Source: a virus (lineage: Duplodnaviria; Heunggongvirae; Uroviricota; Caudoviricetes). From it: DNA of 23,521 nt. The DNA lies in IMG/VR virus record IMGVR_UViG_2529293249_000013, positions 1-23,521 of that record. One strand, 5' to 3'. The position numbers and the translations under genes were made by a program. The notes beneath the pieces are model-generated. The model had not been told where the DNA came from. It did not search any database and saw nothing but the letters and a program-made list of their open reading frames with translations. Each line of letters starts with the position of its first letter. The first letter of the stretch is position 1. Below are positions 1-7,218 of this stretch, piece after piece.

Positions 1-1158
1 ATGCTCACCGTTAAGCAGATTGAAGCAGCAAAGCCGAAAGAAAAACCATACCGCCTTCTCGATGGTAATGGCCTGTACCTTTATGTCCCTGTATCAGGGA
101 AAAAGGTATGGCAGCTTCGCTACAAGATTGACGGTAAGGAAAAAATACTGACCGTAGGAAAATATCCGCTAATGACTTTGCAGGAGGCAAGGGATAAAGC
201 ATGGACTGCGAGGAAAGACATCTCGGTTGGCATCGATCCGGTAAAGGCGAAAAAGGCTTCGTCTAACAACAATTCCTTTAGTGCGATTTACAAGGAATGG
301 TACGAGCACAAGAAGCAAGTCTGGTCAGTAGGCTATGCAAACGAACTTGCCAAAATGTTTGATGACGACATTTTACCCATCATCGGCGGTCTTGAGATTC
401 AGGATATTGAGCCGATGCAACTGTTGGAAGTAATCCGCAGATTTGAAGATCGCGGTGCAATGGAGCGAGCAAATAAAGCCCGCAGAAGATGCGGCGAGGT
501 TTTCCGTTACGCTATTGTCACTGGTAGGGCTAAATATAACCCGGCACCTGACCTTGCTGACGCCATGAAGGGATACCGCAAGAAGAACTTCCCGTTTCTT
601 CCTGCAGACCAGATCCCTGCATTCAACAAAGCACTGGCAACATTTTCAGGAAGCATCGTATCGCTCATTGCGACTAAAGTTTTGCGCTACACAGCCCTAA
701 GAACGAAAGAGCTTCGTTCCATGCTATGGAAGAACGTCGATTTTGAAAACAGGATTATCACCATCGACGCCAGTGTGATGAAGGGACGCAAAATTCATGT
801 GGTCCCGATGTCAGACCAGGTGGTTGAACTTCTCACTACGCTAAGCTCCATCACCAAACCAGTATCAGAGTTTGTTTTTGCCGGGCGCAACGATAAGAAG
901 AAGCCAATCTGCGAGAACGCGGTTCTACTTGTGATCAAACAAATCGGCTATGAGGGTCTGGAAAGCGGTCACGGATTCAGGCATGAATTCAGCACGATTA
1001 TGAACGAGCACGAATGGCCTGCTGACGCTATTGAAGTGCAACTGGCACATGCCAACGGCGGATCTGTGCGTGGAATTTACAACCATGCTCAGTATCTCGA
1101 TAAGCGCAGAGAAATGATGCAGTGGTGGGCGGACTGGATTGATGAAAAGGTGGGCTAA
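1..1158 (+). CDS. int: Tyrosine integrase, P4/Sf6-type (N-terminal arm-binding domain plus catalytic domain); may be complete or clipped by a few codons at the window edge
   Basis: 385-aa ORF starting at base 1. N-terminus MLTVKQIEAAKPKEKPYRLLDGNGLYLYV is typical of P4-family integrase arm-binding domains; C-terminal catalytic motifs HGFRHEFST and RGIYNHAQY (tyrosine nucleophile) are present. Family assignment from recalled motifs, not a search. Confidence 0.9.
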   Translation: MLTVKQIEAAKPKEKPYRLLDGNGLYLYVPVSGKKVWQLRYKIDGKEKILTVGKYPLMTLQEARDKAWTARKDISVGIDPVKAKKASSNNNSFSAIYKEWYEHKKQVWSVGYANELAKMFDDDILPIIGGLEIQDIEPMQLLEVIRRFEDRGAMERANKARRRCGEVFRYAIVTGRAKYNPAPDLADAMKGYRKKNFPFLPADQIPAFNKALATFSGSIVSLIATKVLRYTALRTKELRSMLWKNVDFENRIITIDASVMKGRKIHVVPMSDQVVELLTTLSSITKPVSEFVFAGRNDKKKPICENAVLLVIKQIGYEGLESGHGFRHEFSTIMNEHEWPADAIEVQLAHANGGSVRGIYNHAQYLDKRREMMQWWADWIDEKVG

Positions 1159-1265
1159 CCAACGCTATATCTCTGACAGCACTAAGCCTTGCAATCCAGT
1201 GCAAAGCTTTGTGTGTATAAGTTTTGTCTCATCAACCACAGTAAGTGTGTTTAATATGCTAACCG

Positions 1266-1292
1266 TTGACAATTACGCATAATAAATATAAA
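1266..1292 (+). promoter_or_regulatory. Putative sigma70-type promoter upstream of the acetyltransferase gene
   Basis: Perfect -35 TTGACA at 1266-1271, then a 15-nt spacer and TATAAA at 1287-1292, in an AT-rich intergenic region. Sequence pattern only. Confidence 0.25.
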
Positions 1293-1445
1293 AAATACTC
1301 ACAGCAATTAAACGCAACTAATAGTTACGCAAGAGATTATTTAGTTACATTTAGGCTATACACCAAACTATTAGCTTAAATCAATATGTTTTAATTATAT
1401 TTCGATTTATGTGAACCATGTCACATTTTCAACGGAGCGAATATA

Positions 1446-2033
1446 GTGAATATTTTTAGGTCTTTTAAAGAAAGGTTAATCCCTATTGTTTATCTTTCAT
1501 GCATAAAAAGAACCGCAGACATTACAGTTGGGAAAAATGTCAAATTTAGGGGTGTCCCTGACTTATCAATAGGAAAAGGCTGTTCATTGATAATAGGAGA
1601 TGGTTCATTTATAAACTCATCAAACAAATACTATCATGTAAATATGTTTTCCCCAGTTAAAATATTTGCTGAAAGGGAAGGAACTATTATTTCGATAGGT
1701 AAAAACACAAGAATACATGGGGCATGCTTACATGCCTATAATAAAATATCAATTGGAGATAGATGTCTGATAGCAGCGAATGTACAGATAATTGATTGCA
1801 ACGGTCACGAAAGTTCATTTGAAAATGTGGAAAATAGAATCAATACTTCGAGCGATGGGGTCCCAGTTATTATTGAAGATGATGTGTGGATAGGTACAGG
1901 CTCCATCATTTTGCCTGGAGTAACCATTGGTAGGGGATCAATCATAGCTGCCGGTAGCGTGGTTGTAAAAAGCATACCGCCAATGTGTATAGCTGGGGGA
2001 AACCCAGCTAAAGTTATAAAAATGGCGGACTAA
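1446..2033 (+). CDS. Hexapeptide-repeat (left-handed beta-helix) acetyltransferase, WbbJ/NeuO-like; candidate O-antigen or capsule O-acetyltransferase (lysogenic conversion)
   Basis: 195-aa ORF with GTG start at 1446 and ACGGAG about 10 nt upstream. Hexapeptide repeats visible (IGKNTRIHGACLHAYNKISIGDRCLIAANVQI; VWIGTGSIILPGVTIGRGSIIAAGSVVVKSI). GC about 30-35 percent versus about 47 percent in the late genes. Sits between integrase and tailspike, as oac does in Sf6 and neuO in CUS-3. Confidence 0.8.
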   Translation: MNIFRSFKERLIPIVYLSCIKRTADITVGKNVKFRGVPDLSIGKGCSLIIGDGSFINSSNKYYHVNMFSPVKIFAEREGTIISIGKNTRIHGACLHAYNKISIGDRCLIAANVQIIDCNGHESSFENVENRINTSSDGVPVIIEDDVWIGTGSIILPGVTIGRGSIIAAGSVVVKSIPPMCIAGGNPAKVIKMAD

Positions 2034-2046
2034 GTCCGCCTGTTCA
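2021..2046. terminator. Bidirectional hairpin terminator between convergent acetyltransferase and tailspike genes
   Basis: Perfect inverted repeat GGCGGAC-TAA-GTCCGCC (2024-2040) with the acetyltransferase stop codon in the loop. On the minus strand the hairpin is followed by CATTTTTAT. Confidence 0.5.
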
Positions 2047-4470
2047 TGATTGATAAACACCACTATTTACATAGTTAGCCTGAATTCGTGTACGGAATGT
2101 TGAATCAGCAATCTGATATGAATTTAACTGAACAGGAATAGCGCATCCGGAATATTTACCAGTAGCACTATTACCAGACTCATACTCACCAAATAGCAGT
2201 CCTATGGTTGTAATAGATGTCTCCGCAACTCCTGTGATTGTAGACAACCATCCAAATACACAACTTGTAAAATCAAATATACCTGTTCGTTTTCCACCAC
2301 TACTGTTCCAACCCAATCCATAGATTCGACAGTTGTTAAAGTAAATTCTGTTGTATGAACCGGAGGTGCGGGGAAGCGCTCCATCAATATATCCCATCGC
2401 CATATCTTGATTTGAAACACGCACCGTCATGTTACCCCATGCATTGATATAAGGAACGCAGTTGTAACTGTTATCAATAGTCACATCCTGTGGAACATCA
2501 TAGGAAGTAAACATGAATGTTTGTACGTTATAGCGAGGGTTGGATGGCGAAGTGGTTTTCCCAAGACGAGCAAGGTCTACATCCTTCACTGTGAGCTTAT
2601 ATTTTTCTCTGCCTACGATAGTTGAAAGCTGAGCATCTGTTAGGCTTGAGTAGTTCCTTTGGTTGTAGACAACGCTGACGGATAAAGTGGAATCATAAGA
2701 ACGTGTCCCTACAACCTTTACATTTTCAATGTAATGGCTGTTTGGCAGAATCATATATTGCTCATAATTATTTTTGCTTGACACGCCGAGATCCAATATT
2801 CTAAGTTCCAGAAGTCCAGAGGCATTAGTCAGATCAAGAGACACGTCCTTTATCACTACATCCGGGCTTGTGGCGATATAATTACCATTATATTTTGGTT
2901 CAAGACTGCTTACCAAGAAATAACCTTCACACGTAGACGGTAACGTGACTCGTAAACCTTCAACTCGAATCTCGCCATCCCATGATGACATGTAATCTCG
3001 CTTCACAGAGAAAAATTCAAGAGTTTTTTTCCCGTACATGCCGAGGTGCTTGCATTTAGTGGCCACCCATTCTCCCCAACCTTGCGCCGCACAATGATAA
3101 CGAACTGTCGATTCATTGAGATAAATGTCAGACATACTGAAGTGACCGCCAACGCCAGGTAAGTCGCATCGATTAATATGTATATTTCGTGATTTATTAC
3201 CATCAAAGCCGCTCCACCCATTGATGCAGCAGCAATTATCCATTGTTACATCAGAACATTTTTCAGTGAGGATAAAATAGGCTGCCTCATTTCTTCCCGC
3301 GGGGATGGAAGGTGCAGTACCATCAAGATATCCAACAGGACTCATGTATAGGTTATTAACATAAACTCTTGAGCATCGTTGGAAGTTTACTACCTGCCTT
3401 GTGCAACCATTATTTATTACCTCAACTGTATTTCCATGTATTATAGTATTATTCCTTGAGCAAAGAACAACATTATTGATTCTTGCCCCATCCAAAACAA
3501 CCTTTGGCATTTTAAAATACAGGTTATTTGTAAAAGGTTTATATTTTATAACAGGTCGATCTTTATAGGTATAATAGTTCCGATAACGCAAGTTACCGTC
3601 AGCGTCAATCTCGTGAACTTCTGTTTTTAGCTGGTCTGATAAAGTACCACCATTATTTCTCACCATCACAACATCTTTAGAATCAAGAATAATAGTTCCC
3701 TGTAATCCATTAACAGGGAAGCTCACCTGCCCTTTCATGTAGCTTACTGCGGAAAACATTTCAGTGACATCATTTTCATCCTGAGAGATTTCAAATAGTG
3801 TCTTGTCCAAAGACCAGACATCTCCACCCTGATATGTAGAGCATGTCACTGTTGCATCACTCATATCTGAGCTAACTGTTATTTCAATAGGGTCTGTGGA
3901 ACTTGCCGTGAGAACATAATTCCCTGTAGCAACAACCGATTTTTTCAATATCTTTGCGTCTGCATACATTTTTTTAAACGCTAATGTATGATCCACCTCA
4001 TTCCCATCAAAATAGAGCTCTGGATACAGAAAAGGAAGACTCTTTAACTTATTTAACTCTTCCTGAACAGTAGTGCCAGTTGCCGTCCCTATTATTGATG
4101 CGCCCCCATTACTTTCAATTTGCTGACGCAATTGGTCGGGGTCATACTTCAGCACATTCGGAAAATAGAACTGCTGCGCACCATACGCATCATAAACAGC
4201 CATAGAATGGCCTTGCACAGTTACGAACTTGGCAATCTGTCCGTTATATACCGGATATCCAGCAGCGTTAATGATGATTGGTTGCGAAACAGGAACGTGA
4301 GAACCGTCTTCGTTCTCCACATAAACCTGAATCTGGTTTTCAGGATTTACCGGGTCCGTGTCAATTTTACCGATATAGATTTTGCCATTGGCTACGGCTT
4401 TAAAAGAACGAGCCATAGTGAAGAGTTGCGAAGGCATGCTCACTACAACATTGGCTGTAATGTCTGTCAT
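2044..4470 (-). CDS. Tailspike protein: P22 gp9-type head-binding N-terminal domain fused to a divergent receptor-binding/depolymerase body
   Basis: 808-aa ORF. First ~115 aa ([11 protein letters not shown]...[21 protein letters not shown]...[13 protein letters not shown]...VLKYDPDQ) closely match the P22 tailspike head-binding domain as recalled; the rest is unrelated to P22 gp9 and AT-rich (~30-40 percent GC). RBS GGAG 9 nt upstream of ATG at 4470. Confidence 0.9.
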
Positions 4471-4602
4471 TTAATTTGCTCCAGATACAATGAATCGCCG
4501 CAGCATGGCTACGGTTGATGTTTGTTGCATACCGAAATGGTACGATTGTTGATTTGTACAGTAGGTTTTACGATGCCATTCCACCCATTTGGTGAGGCAT
4601 TG

Positions 4603-4860
4603 ATGATGTACAGCAAATACGATGAGGCGCAGTTCCACTTGAGGCTTACGCACGAGTTGCACGCTAAGATTAAGCAGCGTGCAAAAATGAATAACAGGTC
4701 TATCAATTCCGAAATTGTGGCTACGATGGAAGAATCACTCTCCAAACCATCACCTGTAAGCGGGTATCGTGATGAAGAAGAGAGGTTGGCCTCATTAATC
4801 TCGGAGCGAGTAAAAGAAGTTGCGGCTGATATCCTTAGAAAAGAAAAAACCCGCGATTAA
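4603..4860 (+). CDS. mnt: Mnt-like ribbon-helix-helix repressor (immI region)
   Basis: Six-frame ORF 4522-4860 trimmed to ATG at 4603, which has RBS GGTGAGG upstream. The 85-aa product has RHH motif NNRSINSEIVATMEESL and a C-terminal SKPSPVSGYRDEEERLA close to P22 Mnt (SKPSPVTGYRNDAERLA, from memory). Confidence 0.8.
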   Translation: MMYSKYDEAQFHLRLTHELHAKIKQRAKMNNRSINSEIVATMEESLSKPSPVSGYRDEEERLASLISERVKEVAADILRKEKTRD

Positions 4861-4869
4861 GCGGGTTTA
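4843..4869. terminator. Bidirectional rho-independent terminator between convergent mnt and the 73-aa ORF
   Basis: AAAAAA-CCCGC-gattaa-GCGGG-TTT: 5-bp GC stem flanked by an A-run and a T-run; the mnt stop codon lies in the loop. Confidence 0.6.
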
Positions 4870-4874
4870 GTTGG

Positions 4875-5096
4875 TTAGTTATCAAAAAGTCCGTACGTTT
4901 CTTCTTCTTCAGGTGTAAGGGGAAGAATCTCTACTCTATCTATAGATATCTTTTCAATGTACCCATGAGGTCTACTTAAAATTAAAGCTCTCTCATGCCA
5001 CAGAACTCCAAGAATGTGATACCTTCCAGCATCGCCTTTTACCCTGGCTCTTCCTTTGATTCTTGGCGGCATAATGCCATATTTTTTCTTTGCCAT
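4875..5096 (-). CDS. Hypothetical 73-aa protein, translationally coupled to the upstream KilAC-domain gene
   Basis: Its ATG overlaps the stop of the upstream gene (TAATG). Basic N-terminus MAKKKYGIMPPRIKGRARVKG. No family recognised. Confidence 0.45.
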   Translation of the reverse strand: MAKKKYGIMPPRIKGRARVKGDAGRYHILGVLWHERALILSRPHGYIEKISIDRVEILPLTPEEEETYGLFDN

Positions 5097-5824
5097 TATG
5101 CAACATTACTCCCATGAATCAGGTGTTGTAGTGCTTTAACACCTTCCTCATTGTAGCGGAATGCTTCCACCTGTTTGCTGGAATGCGCAGATTTATCCAG
5201 GAAGAACTTCCCGTACTGCTCAGTTTTGAGGTTGTTTGCGTTAGCAATGCGACCAATCTTGTTGGCCGTTACCCCAAGCTGCTCTGCAACCTCCCCTGCT
5301 GAGTAGTAATGCTCTTCTATTGCTGGAAGAGGTATTGCATTAAAACCAACGATCGGGTTGATTATGCTTGCTGCCGCAGTCTGCTTTGCTTCCGGCGCAA
5401 GATTTGGCATCAAATCGAACAGATTGGTAACAGCTTCAACCGTCATTTTCAATGTTCGCGCCTGGCGATACTCAACAAGTCCACTAGACGATTTACCGCT
5501 TTTAATGTGCGCTTCTTGCATACTTTCAAGTTGGTCTACAAGTGAGCGGCGAACAGCTTTAGATTCACGAGCAGCCACTCGAAGGGCTTGCTTAATTGAC
5601 ATAACAACTTTTTCAGAAGTTGTCTTGTTTGATTTTTGAACTACGAAAATTTCGTAGTGCTCACCTTCAAGTTCATCCTTAATGCGTGCAATAAAGTCGT
5701 TATTGCGGACTTCTTTTTCCCCGCACTGTCTACGAGCATGATTGACCATCTCTAACAGGTACTGGCTATCAATGGTTTTATCCGTGACAACGGATCCGAT
5801 GTTTGCTACATTCTTAAAAGTCAT
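5096..5824 (-). CDS. Phage antirepressor/regulatory protein with KilAC-like C-terminal domain
   Basis: Six-frame ORF 5096-5875 trimmed to ATG at 5824 (MTFKNVANIG...) with RBS AAGGAA 8 nt upstream. N-terminus TIDSQYLLEMVNHARRQCGEKEVRNNDFIARIKDEL resembles phage antirepressor N-domains; C-terminus (YSAGEVAEQLGVTANKIGRIANANNL...) looks like a KilAC domain. Assignment from memory, moderate. Confidence 0.6.
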   Translation of the reverse strand: MTFKNVANIGSVVTDKTIDSQYLLEMVNHARRQCGEKEVRNNDFIARIKDELEGEHYEIFVVQKSNKTTSEKVVMSIKQALRVAARESKAVRRSLVDQLESMQEAHIKSGKSSSGLVEYRQARTLKMTVEAVTNLFDLMPNLAPEAKQTAAASIINPIVGFNAIPLPAIEEHYYSAGEVAEQLGVTANKIGRIANANNLKTEQYGKFFLDKSAHSSKQVEAFRYNEEGVKALQHLIHGSNVA

Positions 5825-5912
5825 TAGGCATTCCTTATGTGGTAGTAAGGGTGTGACATAGGCCGCCAGCAGCACACTGGCGGTTTTCTTTTTGCGCCGT
5901 CCGGCGCACCAA

Positions 5913-6539
5913 TCAATGAATCCATTCCTCGCCGCGCAGTTTTGCCAGCATTGGCTGAGCGTTCTTTACGACAAAATTGTTGGTATCAAGATTCTTCATT
6001 TCACGAAGAAGTGATTTCTTGGTTTCTTCTGACATGTAGCGAGTCTCATATGCAATATCGTAAATCCTTCCTGAAAGCTCAGAACCAATTTGCTTCATTC
6101 CTGGGTAGATGTGTTTGCACATTTGTTGACTCTTCTCCATCCACAATTGTAAGTAGCAGAGATTAACCAGTTCTTCGTCAGTAAACTGTTTTGCAATCGG
6201 TGAGCATTCTGCCTGCCGATCCAAAATATCCAGCACCCAGCGGCGGAACTCTTTGGCTACCTGAGTGCGAGCAAACATCGCGATTAGGTGGGCACCGCGT
6301 AGTGAGAAAACACGCACTTTTTTGCGATAATTTCCTGAGGTACTCACTTCGAGTACCTGAGTCATTCCGGCGCTAAACTCATCGCTATACTTGTTATAAA
6401 TCATTGTTACTGCACGACTATTTGCGTATTTAAGTGCAGATGCAATATTAGATGATGTAAACCAAACACCATGCATATCACGGGTGGGCACCAATTCAAC
6501 TCCGTGGAAGTTATAATCTGATTTTGCTACAATATTCAT
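5913..6539 (-). CDS. Bro-N-type antirepressor-like protein (ant analogue downstream of arc)
   Basis: Bro-N-like motif YNFHGVELVPTRDMHGVWFTSSNIASALKYANSRAV...RVFSLRGAHLIAMFARTQVAKEFRRWVLDIL. Start set at ATG 6539 (MNIVAK..., RBS AAGGAAA). An upstream in-frame ATG at 6623 also has a plausible RBS and would overlap the arc stop. Confidence 0.7.
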   Translation of the reverse strand: MNIVAKSDYNFHGVELVPTRDMHGVWFTSSNIASALKYANSRAVTMIYNKYSDEFSAGMTQVLEVSTSGNYRKKVRVFSLRGAHLIAMFARTQVAKEFRRWVLDILDRQAECSPIAKQFTDEELVNLCYLQLWMEKSQQMCKHIYPGMKQIGSELSGRIYDIAYETRYMSEETKKSLLREMKNLDTNNFVVKNAQPMLAKLRGEEWIH

Positions 6540-6608
6540 GTTAGTTTCCTTGCATACGGTTACTGACATAGAGGCCCGGTTTGTGTTCACGCACTGCCGG
6601 GCTTCACT
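6525..6608 (+). ncRNA. Possible sar-like small antisense RNA, complementary to the ant-analogue RBS and start codon
   Basis: Plus-strand consensus -10 TATAAT at 6512-6517 (weak -35). Downstream, a hairpin GAGGCCCGG-17 nt loop-CCGGGCTTC (6571-6605) is followed by ACTATTTTTACT. The predicted ~80-nt transcript would be antisense to the RBS/ATG at 6539-6552. P22 has a sar RNA in the equivalent arc-ant interval. Confidence 0.25.
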
Positions 6609-6612
6609 ATTT

Positions 6613-6786
6613 TTACTGGGCATTAGCTCTTTCCTCTCTCAGGCTTTTAGCCAGTCGCTGCACAATCGCAGAGTTGATAGAAATTCCATCCATTTCAGCA
6701 ACACGTCTAATCTCCTCCTTCATTCGCGCTGGCAAACGAAGCTGGAAACTTTGACTTTTACGACCTGTGTAAAGCACATCTTTCAT
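6613..6786 (-). CDS. arc: Arc-like ribbon-helix-helix repressor
   Basis: Six-frame ORF 6613-6801 trimmed to ATG at 6786 with RBS GGGAGGA. The 57-aa product has RHH motif SFQLRLPARMKEEIRRVAEMDGISINSAIVQRL, resembling P22 Arc (QFNLRWPREVLDLVRKVAEENGRSVNSEIYQRV, from memory). First gene of an arc-ant-like operon. Confidence 0.75.
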   Translation of the reverse strand: MKDVLYTGRKSQSFQLRLPARMKEEIRRVAEMDGISINSAIVQRLAKSLREERANAQ

Positions 6787-6897
6787 AAGTAATCCTCCCA
6801 CAATGATACCAACTTGGTTCTAGAACCAATTTAACACCATTTATTTTGATGTCAAGTTGGTGCTATTGTTTAGCGAACATCTTTACGTTGAGGTCAT
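6787..6897. promoter_or_regulatory. Divergent promoter/operator region between arc-like (minus) and second mnt-like (plus) genes
   Basis: Perfect 16-bp palindrome TTGGTTCTAGAACCAA (6814-6829), flanked by 9-bp inverted repeats ACCAACTTG (6808-6816) and CAAGTTGGT (6853-6861). Minus-strand promoter: -35 TTGACA (6850-6855), 16-nt spacer, -10 TAAATT (6828-6833); the palindrome covers the -10 and predicted start site. Confidence 0.6.
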
Positions 6898-7218
6898 ATG
6901 AGCAAGTTCCCTAGTCATGAAATGGATAGGTTCAATATCAGGCTTCCTGCAGGAATGCGGGATGCTATAGCTGAACGAGCCAAACGTAACGGCAGATCAA
7001 TGAACTCAGAGATTGTTCAGATACTGGAAGATGCCTTGAATGCAGAAAATACACTCGGGGAAATAGCAGATAAAATCAACAGCGTCTCGGTTCCGCTAAA
7101 TGTTGATGCGCTAGTTCAACTTCAAGCCCAGGTTATCGCCATGCAAAAAGAAATACAGGAAAAGTTCAGAGAGCAGAACGAAAAGTTGAGAGAACTGCTA
7201 AACAAAAAAACCACCTGA
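6898..7218 (+). CDS. Second Mnt-like RHH repressor (N-terminal RHH plus C-terminal coiled coil)
   Basis: 106-aa ORF. RHH motif FNIRLPAGMRDAIAERAKRNGRSMNSEIVQILEDAL, then a heptad-rich C-terminus (LVQLQAQVIAMQKEIQEKFREQNEKLRELL). Divergent from the arc-like gene, in the position P22 mnt occupies. Confidence 0.7.
   Translation: MSKFPSHEMDRFNIRLPAGMRDAIAERAKRNGRSMNSEIVQILEDALNAENTLGEIADKINSVSVPLNVDALVQLQAQVIAMQKEIQEKFREQNEKLRELLNKKTT

Follow-up and report, generated by a model that had tools for sequence, protein, structure and literature searches.

A chimeric tailspike with a P22-type head-binding domain and a putative polysaccharide lyase body, next to an exchangeable acetyltransferase cassette, in a P22-like prophage

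The window analysed here is a stretch of 23,521 nt from a Caudoviricetes virus (IMG/VR record IMGVR_UViG_2529293249_000013, positions 1 to 23,521), and its tailspike gene belongs to a P22-like (Lederbergvirus-type) prophage integrated at argW. In the list of open reading frames (ORFs) of the window, the gene is a single ORF of 808 aa with a TGA stop, and E. coli DETEC-E601, whose prophage is 100% identical to window positions 1-4700, has the same ORF under the name 'phage head-binding domain-containing protein'. The gene and its parts are as follows:

2044..4470, minus strand: tailspike ORF (ORF list and DETEC-E601 annotation)
4132..4470, minus strand: head-binding (particle attachment) domain, residues 1-113 (Pfam PF09008 and PDB matches)
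4114..4143, minus strand: recombination junction zone, residues 110-119 (megablast ends and blastn resumption)
3700..4122, minus strand: linker motif and helical/neck region, residues 117-257, with which the swapped-in module opens (motif alignment and model helices)
2578..3699, minus strand: right-handed parallel beta-helix, residues ~258-631, the predicted catalytic body
2047..2577, minus strand: C-terminal beta-rich domain, residues ~632-808, the most mosaic part of the gene (model strands and identity drop)

The N-terminal domain matches the complete Pfam Head_binding profile PF09008 (profile positions 1-113 of 113 on residues 1-113, E 2e-67), and a phmmer search of the PDB aligned the same residues with the solved tailspike N-domains of Sf6 (gp14, 7sg7), P22 (gp9) and HK620. 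The initial annotation had described this domain as near-identical to that of P22; it is of P22 type, but the identity to P22 is 77% (86/112), while that to Sf6 reaches 93% (105/113). The junction with the body is located at residues 110-119, since 32 P22-like phage records align by megablast from gene nt 1 up to 326-357 only and blastn homology to CUS-3 picks up again at window position 4114; homology to CUS-3, HK620 and Sf6 stops within these residues. No DNA match was found by megablast past gene nt 357 in the P22-like phage records, and homology to the P22 gp9 body (residues ~125-666) was absent, the phmmer alignments to 2xc1, 8tvr and 5gai stopping at residue 117. Past residue ~120, no match was obtained in PDB, Pfam, NCBIfam or PHROGs, in agreement with the earlier observation that similarity stops after about 115 residues. 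The domain swap that had been proposed on this ground is confirmed by the end of homology at residues 110-119 and by the occurrence of the body family on at least three other adapters. The protein combines three features of P22-like tailspikes, which are homotrimers present in six copies per virion: a PF09008 N-domain, a P22-type gene position and a right-handed beta-helix body. It is well known that P22-type adapters stay conserved while their tailspike bodies are exchanged, and the architecture itself is not new; the gene almost certainly encodes a chimeric depolymerase spike on such an adapter.

The body was modelled by AlphaFold2 as a monomer (residues 112-808, 18 sequences), with a predicted local distance difference test score (pLDDT) of 84.4 and a predicted template modelling score (pTM) of 0.87. 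In the model, a short neck with helices at model residues 24-64 leads into a long right-handed beta-helix, which is followed by a C-terminal domain rich in beta-strands (model residues 536-677). The protein contains 16 cysteines, none of which lies within the first 115 residues, so that the beta-helix-like, cysteine-containing body expected from the sequence was borne out. The structures closest to the model are phage polysaccharide lyases, with K64-ORF41 the best by a clear margin. The next three structures include AP22 gp54, a documented lyase, and the O-antigen lyase LKA1 gp49 (PDB 4RU4). K64-ORF41 has been listed as a lyase that acts by beta-elimination, with Tyr528, His574 and Arg628 as catalytic residues, and was grouped with the K1 lyase and AP22 gp54 (PMC11652154). 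The catalytic beta-helix fold of the model is similar to that of this Tyr/His/Arg group (K64-ORF41, K1-ORF34 and AP22 gp54), and hhalign of the body family against K64-ORF41 gave a probability of 98.8%.

In both profile-sequence and profile-profile alignments, Tyr528 of K64-ORF41 falls on Y398 (codon 3277-3279), His574 on H443 (3142-3144) and Arg628 on K490 (3001-3003). Across 44 aligned family members, some as distant as ~24% identity, Y398 and H443 never vary; they form the only invariant Tyr/His pair in the aligned segment. Position 490 is always Lys or Arg in the 44 relatives (Lys in the close ones, Arg in most of the more distant ones), followed in the window protein by R491. The body would thus depolymerise a polysaccharide by beta-elimination, with Tyr398, His443 and a third, basic residue (Lys490 or Arg491) as the predicted catalytic residues, and the balance of the structural and alignment evidence tips slightly towards this lyase chemistry. 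Two points weigh against it: the third catalytic position holds Lys, in place of the Arg of the solved lyases, and over the helix the sequence alignment with K64-ORF41 is weak when taken alone (hmmsearch domain 2, 4.2 bits). Beta-elimination would also need the glucuronic acid (GlcA) of the substrate proposed below to be 4-substituted.

The body might instead be a glycoside hydrolase like the spikes of P22, Sf6 and HK620, acting on the same receptor, and this could account for the Lys in place of Arg at position 490, as well as for the acidic residues D423, D448, D492 and D498, which are conserved or invariant in the family; the amidated carboxyl of the proposed substrate would also be unusual for known phage lyases. 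We consider a hydrolase rather unlikely, as the lyase K64-ORF41 clearly leads the structural matches, the lyase AP22 gp54 is among the next three, and the catalytic Tyr and His of the lyases fall on the only invariant Tyr/His pair of the segment.

Apart from its fold, the body stands far from known proteins. Among 50,697 phage records, megablast and tblastn found no close relative, the best being a hypothetical protein of a Vibrio phage at 26.6% identity, and when 1.84 billion cluster representatives were scanned exhaustively with HMMER, only 64 relatives reached E<=1e-3. A close, characterised relative was rejected after the phage records, PDB phmmer, Pfam, NCBIfam and PHROGs had yielded none, and the suggestion that the spike could be a new depolymerase still holds. 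The body accordingly defines a new, small and uncharacterised depolymerase family with no Pfam, PHROG or PDB member. In other phages at least three further N-terminal adapters precede it, among them Tail_spike_N (PF18668), seen on lambdoid prophages; other fusions are a 919-aa form and one on a phage contig that appears non-temperate.

The swapped module opens with a linker motif, GASIIG…G.TVQEEL, which is common to many Tail_spike_N-type spikes including K64-ORF41, and residues 117-257 are only 50-55% identical to relatives with other adapters. Two further proteins (P0058 and P0066) match the spike only over residues ~118-190 (49-51% identity) and differ beyond, so that linker and neck may themselves form an exchangeable sub-module. 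Within the P22-type spikes, that of E. coli NCTC11121 is ~100% identical to the window protein over residues 1-240 and 62-75% over residues 281-440, variant P0002 is near-identical up to residue 480 and then 70-85%, and the C-terminal half of variant P0004 falls to 42-78%; over the C-terminal domain, identity to P0002 and P0004 goes down to 42-85%, against near 100% in the N-terminal half. As a side observation, a 44-kb contig in Sequence Read Archive (SRA) run SRR26673762 encodes a spike body of 73% identity together with DNA polymerase A, an SNF2 helicase and an Enc34-type single-stranded DNA-binding protein, and appears non-temperate, no integrase or lysogeny genes being present in the part seen. 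The adjacent run, SRR26673761, holds a bacterial O46-like cluster with an acetyltransferase, and the two may represent a phage and its isolation host.

Beside the spike lies a slot for sugar-modifying genes, which in the window is occupied as follows:

1446..2033, plus strand: LbH (hexapeptide-repeat) acyltransferase of 195 aa, a predicted polysaccharide O-acetyltransferase (GTG start, GGAG Shine-Dalgarno)
1247..2043, plus strand: exchangeable cargo cassette, consisting of an AT-rich leader and the acyltransferase, GC 35% (homology breakpoints)
2024..2040, minus strand: terminator-like hairpin GGCGGAC-TTA-GTCCGCC with a T-run (terminator scan and sequence)

The acyltransferase matches Pfam Hexapep PF00132 and PF14602 above the gathering score (E 3.8e-14 and 7.6e-11); its top PDB matches are maltose O-acetyltransferase and NeuO (3jqy), and its top NCBIfam match is WbbJ (74.1 bits against a cut-off of 243), all curated equivalog cut-offs being missed. 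Its family has more than 5,000 members, most of them chromosomal. The hairpin, with a 7-bp stem, lies 3 nt past the tailspike stop and contains the last codons and the stop of the convergent acyltransferase, so that the termination signals of the two genes overlap; in relatives this position has a hairpin of another sequence (GGGGGCT…CCCCC), and a shared terminator as part of the spike module was rejected on this ground. The acyltransferase gene contains no tandem array other than a 2-copy A-rich 9-mer, and phase variation of the NeuO kind was likewise rejected.

The distribution of the spike body among hosts was surveyed in 5,426 complete E. coli genomes, of which nine carry it. The acyltransferase is present in exactly seven complete genomes, which are those with a body more than 98% identical to that of the window, and it adjoins the spike in 7/7. 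The O-antigen regions were read in eight of the nine carriers, NCTC9966 being judged through its cluster match only, and contain the following loci:

DETEC-E601, TUM1887, A28, 41 and FCI51: O46/O134-family wzx/wzy cluster between galF and gnd, O8 mannan locus between gnd and his
NCTC11121 and NCTC9966: O46/O134-family cluster between galF and gnd; no locus between gnd and his in NCTC11121, this interval not checked in NCTC9966
WL164: O160-family cluster between galF and gnd, O9 mannan locus between gnd and his
TUM12355: O160-family cluster between galF and gnd, O8 mannan locus between gnd and his

The O46/O134 wzx/wzy cluster, which contains an ATP-grasp amidoligase and three glycosyltransferases with Gnu upstream, was found in 17 of the 5,426 genomes, and seven of the nine body carriers are among them (hypergeometric P 2.5e-17, a value uncorrected for clonality that overstates independence, several carriers being clonally related in this region). 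Outside Escherichia, a prophage of Siccibacter colletis (GCA_000696575.1) has a spike with a body of 69% identity, followed by a gtr set, and the galF-gnd cluster of this bacterium is colinear with E. coli O46/O134 at 41-62% aa identity (ATP-grasp 62%, Wzx 50%, two family 2 glycosyltransferases 49% and 53%, Wzy 41%, Branch-type N-acetylglucosamine transferase 60%), apart from Gnu at 84%. No mannan locus is present in this genome. The cluster ends in an extra seventh gene that is 68% identical to the window acyltransferase; this gene, which is not a phage gene, is the closest relative of the acyltransferase outside Escherichia with a known context. The spike family and the acyltransferase are therefore both tied to O46/O134-like polymers. 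An O46/O134-colinear cluster with a terminal hexapeptide acyltransferase was seen in S. colletis JMSQ01000006.1 (408805-427401) and in SRR26673761. We know of no published O-antigen structure for S. colletis; from its gene content, the polymer is predicted to be O46/O134-like and O-acetylated.

According to the title of Perepelov 2015, as listed in PMC7685785, the O46 and O134 antigens contain D-glucuronoyl-D-allothreonine, a component that fits a uronic-acid lyase and not one acting on a neutral mannan. The two gene clusters have been reported to be 98-99.9% identical, without serological cross-reaction (DebRoy et al., PMC4732683). No open paper linking a tailspike to O46 was found. Taken together, the host associations and the structural matches suggest that the O46/O134-type polysaccharide, with its D-glucuronoyl-D-allothreonine, is the likely receptor and substrate of the spike. 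Strains of O8 or O9 type would display this polymer as an outer layer resembling a K antigen. Five of the carrier genomes combine the O8 mannan locus at gnd-his with an intact O46/O134-type Wzx/Wzy locus at galF-gnd and colanic acid genes, as would be expected of O8 strains that have a group 4 K antigen. The gene order in these five strains presumably resembles that of the O8:K40 locus, in which GlcA is amidated with serine.

Several observations weigh against this receptor. WL164 and TUM12355 carry the body with an O160-type cluster and not with O46/O134; the independent carrier lineages are few (an O8 clone-like group, a prophage-remnant lineage, the NCTC pair and S. colletis); all of the acetyltransferase hosts (7/7) also carry an O8 or O9 mannan locus; and the specificity is deduced from association. 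The two O160-type hosts lost weight as a counter-example, since they, together with FCI51, retain only a four-gene prophage remnant (an Arc-family gene, the spike, the acyltransferase and intS) with identical chromosomal flanks. These remnants represent one old lineage, and the O locus of WL164 and TUM12355 may have been switched later. The FCI51 spike is truncated at residue 723. As the pair of spike and acetyltransferase has outlived the rest of the phage, the acetyltransferase may have been kept by selection.

It is improbable that the receptor is instead the neutral O8/O9 polymannan, an ABC-exported polymer that a cytoplasmic acetyltransferase would modify in the manner of NeuO. Such a receptor would agree with the O8 (six) or O9 (one) locus in all seven genomes that combine a body of more than 98% identity with the acetyltransferase, with a soluble hexapeptide-repeat enzyme being suited to a polymer made wholly in the cytoplasm, and with NeuO being among the best structural and sequence matches of that enzyme. 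Mannan loci are nevertheless missing from NCTC11121, with its 87% identical spike (the near-duplicate NCTC9966 being unchecked), and from S. colletis, and the O8 and O9 mannans differ from each other. Moreover, the structures closest to the body are uronic-acid lyases with a conserved Tyr/His/basic triad, for which a mannan offers no uronic acid, and the closest homologue of the acetyltransferase with known context sits in a Wzx/Wzy O46-like cluster. Hosts without mannan (NCTC and Siccibacter) and an active site of lyase type led us to downgrade the O8 mannan as receptor.

The O46/O134-type receptor also gives a possible role to the neighbouring cargo. Compared with NCTC11121, homology runs over window positions 1-1246, breaks and resumes at 2049, the gap being filled there by gtrABC; compared with CUS-3, it breaks at 1151 and resumes at 4114, with neuO in the gap. 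The slot between the conserved int and tailspike flanks therefore holds polysaccharide-modifying genes, which may be the acyltransferase, gtrABC or neuO. The P0002 and P0003 alleles also adjoin gtrABC, as do body relatives at 73-87% identity, in place of the acetyltransferase, and on three phage backbones, two of them non-P22, the homologous body is followed by the same 473-aa GtrC (92-100% identity). The distribution of gtrC is informative only for the two near-identical NCTC genomes, and its use as an independent test was dropped for this reason. The cassette has a GC content of 35%, against 30-32% for the O46/O134-like clusters, and was probably captured from an O-antigen gene cluster of this kind. 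In the lysogen, the enzyme would most likely O-acetylate the polymer recognised by the spike, changing the serotype and blocking superinfection, as gtrABC does in sister prophages and neuO in CUS-3; we regard this target as reasonably probable.

A GC content of 30-40% had been ascribed to the body, but the shift is smaller than stated: the body measures 40.0% (35-44% in 300-bp windows; 34.3% at third codon positions, GC3), the N-domain 44.9%, and the acetyltransferase ORF 36.7% (GC3 29.1%). Across the rest of the window, body-sized (2,082-bp) windows average 47.3% (standard deviation 2.5) with a minimum of 41.9%, so that the body lies under every window of its size elsewhere, and the shift is real but modest. 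The virion gene at 8130-10253 has an equally low GC3 (0.329) with an overall GC of 44%. In other phages the homologous body has a GC content of 42-47%, always a few points under its backbone, and low GC is therefore a trait of the body family. The body (2044-4113) and the acetyltransferase (~1247-2043) are, by their breakpoints, separate and separable cassettes, and the picture of a spike body and a sugar-modifying cassette that travel together, with the cassette exchangeable, fits functional coupling rather than a single import. The joint arrival of both from one lower-GC donor in one event, as suggested in the initial annotation, is thus very doubtful: it would explain their adjacency, their GC below background (40.0% and 36.7% against 47%), their constant company in complete E. 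coli genomes and the covariation of the spike 3' half with the cargo (window type with the acetyltransferase; P0002, P0003 and NCTC types with gtrABC), but the homology breakpoints lie exactly at the spike stop codon, the body family occurs with gtrABC on three other backbones, its GC of 42-47% in other phages marks low GC as a family trait, and the acetyltransferase family is mostly chromosomal, its nearest contextualised relative lying in an O-antigen cluster of 32% GC.

A lyase-type spike directed at the O46/O134 polymer, with a cargo enzyme that acetylates the same polymer, would best explain the whole, and we assign it a probability of about 0.6. What is new is a concrete candidate substrate (the O46/O134-type polymer with GlcA-D-allothreonine), a candidate chemistry and candidate catalytic residues, as well as a spike body and a matching sugar-modifying cassette that appear to move together across unrelated phage backbones. 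The cargo cassettes (the LbH O-acetyltransferase and the 473-aa GtrC set) are a candidate cause of the serological split between O46 and O134, and may in addition underlie an acetylated K-type antigen of O8 strains that has so far gone unrecognised. If true, the spike could be used to type or decapsulate a rare E. coli serogroup, the O46/O134 split might be explained, and the locus would be a clean case of a phage taking a gene of a host O-antigen cluster to turn off its own receptor. The boldest version, in which the spike is the first identified O46/O134 depolymerase, a lyase at amino-acid-amidated glucuronic acid, and the cargo cassettes explain the O46/O134 serology, is put forward very tentatively.

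The remaining genes of the window agree with a P22-like prophage. Next to the cargo slot lies the integrase:

1..1158, plus strand: IntS-type tyrosine integrase (Pfam; in DETEC-E601 the prophage lies at tRNA-Arg (argW) beside yfdC)

In DETEC-E601, the prophage upstream of the spike contains P22-type capsid, gp4, gp10, needle and injection genes, Arc-family genes and an antirepressor, and the order is antirepressor, spike, cargo, intS and tRNA-Arg. Window positions 4522-7218 form an immI-like region with Arc/Mnt-family ORFs at 4522-4860 (plus strand), 6613-6801 (minus strand) and 6898-7218 (plus strand), an ORF at 5913-6623 that matches a DETEC-E601 gene with a P22AR C-terminal (antirepressor-type) domain, and an ORF at 5096-5875 that matches a gene annotated there only as hypothetical; the region has more repressor-type genes than P22 itself. 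The ORF at 8130-10253 (707 aa), a 'hypothetical protein' in DETEC-E601, follows the gene of a DNA transfer protein, occupies the slot of the gp16-type injection protein in related prophages and may be another mosaic segment. Strain A28 has a second P22-like prophage near yagU/ykgJ (NZ_CP028747.1 3786047-3804790), with its own intS, an identical acyltransferase and a disrupted spike (a head-binding pseudogene plus a 606-aa 'phage tail protein'). In strain 41, both genes occur at two places, and the O-antigen locus lies ~1.3 Mb from the listed copy and not ~0.34 Mb, a distance that suggests a rearrangement.

Among known systems, the closest is CUS-3, a P22-like prophage at argW whose integrase DNA is 97.7% and whose head-binding domain DNA is 92% identical to those of the window. 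Both combine int, a hexapeptide-repeat polysaccharide O-acetyltransferase and a swapped tailspike body, and share a logic in which the spike degrades a surface polymer that the neighbouring enzyme acetylates, these roles being predicted in the case of the window. The bodies are unrelated, CUS-3 having an endosialidase and the window a beta-helix lyase-like module. The window acetyltransferase is 37% identical to CUS-3 NeuO over 68% of its length, lacks the AAGACTC heptanucleotide tract for phase variation, and is convergent to the spike, whereas neuO of CUS-3 runs in the same direction as its spike. P22 gp9, Sf6 gp14 and HK620 gp9 have in common with the window spike the N-terminal head-binding domain (77-93% aa identity), a beta-helix body, a gene position next to the immI region (arc/mnt/ant) and int, and serotype-converting cargo nearby, which in P22 is gtrABC. 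They show no sequence similarity to it past residue ~119, and these three tailspikes are endoglycosidases, that is, hydrolases.

K64-ORF41 of Klebsiella phage SH-KP152410 (PDB 8X8M), the K1 lyase (7W1C) and AP22 gp54 (4Y9V) form one subgroup. K64-ORF41 resembles the window protein in its GAxxIG…G.TVQ linker motif, in having the catalytic Tyr and His and in a basic residue at the Arg position, and differs from it in its overall sequence (13-14% identity), its T7-like gp17 N-terminus adapter and its K64 capsule substrate; the window protein has Lys in the place of Arg628. Pseudomonas phage LKA1 gp49 is likewise distant (13% identity), and its host, adapter and substrate are all different. As for the cargo, the acetyltransferase is similar to the group of WbbJ, WcaF, NeuO and maltose/galactoside acetyltransferases in its hexapeptide repeats and C-terminal catalytic region, while its true orthologue group is not WbbJ or NeuO but the unnamed seventh gene of the S. 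colletis O46/O134-like cluster.

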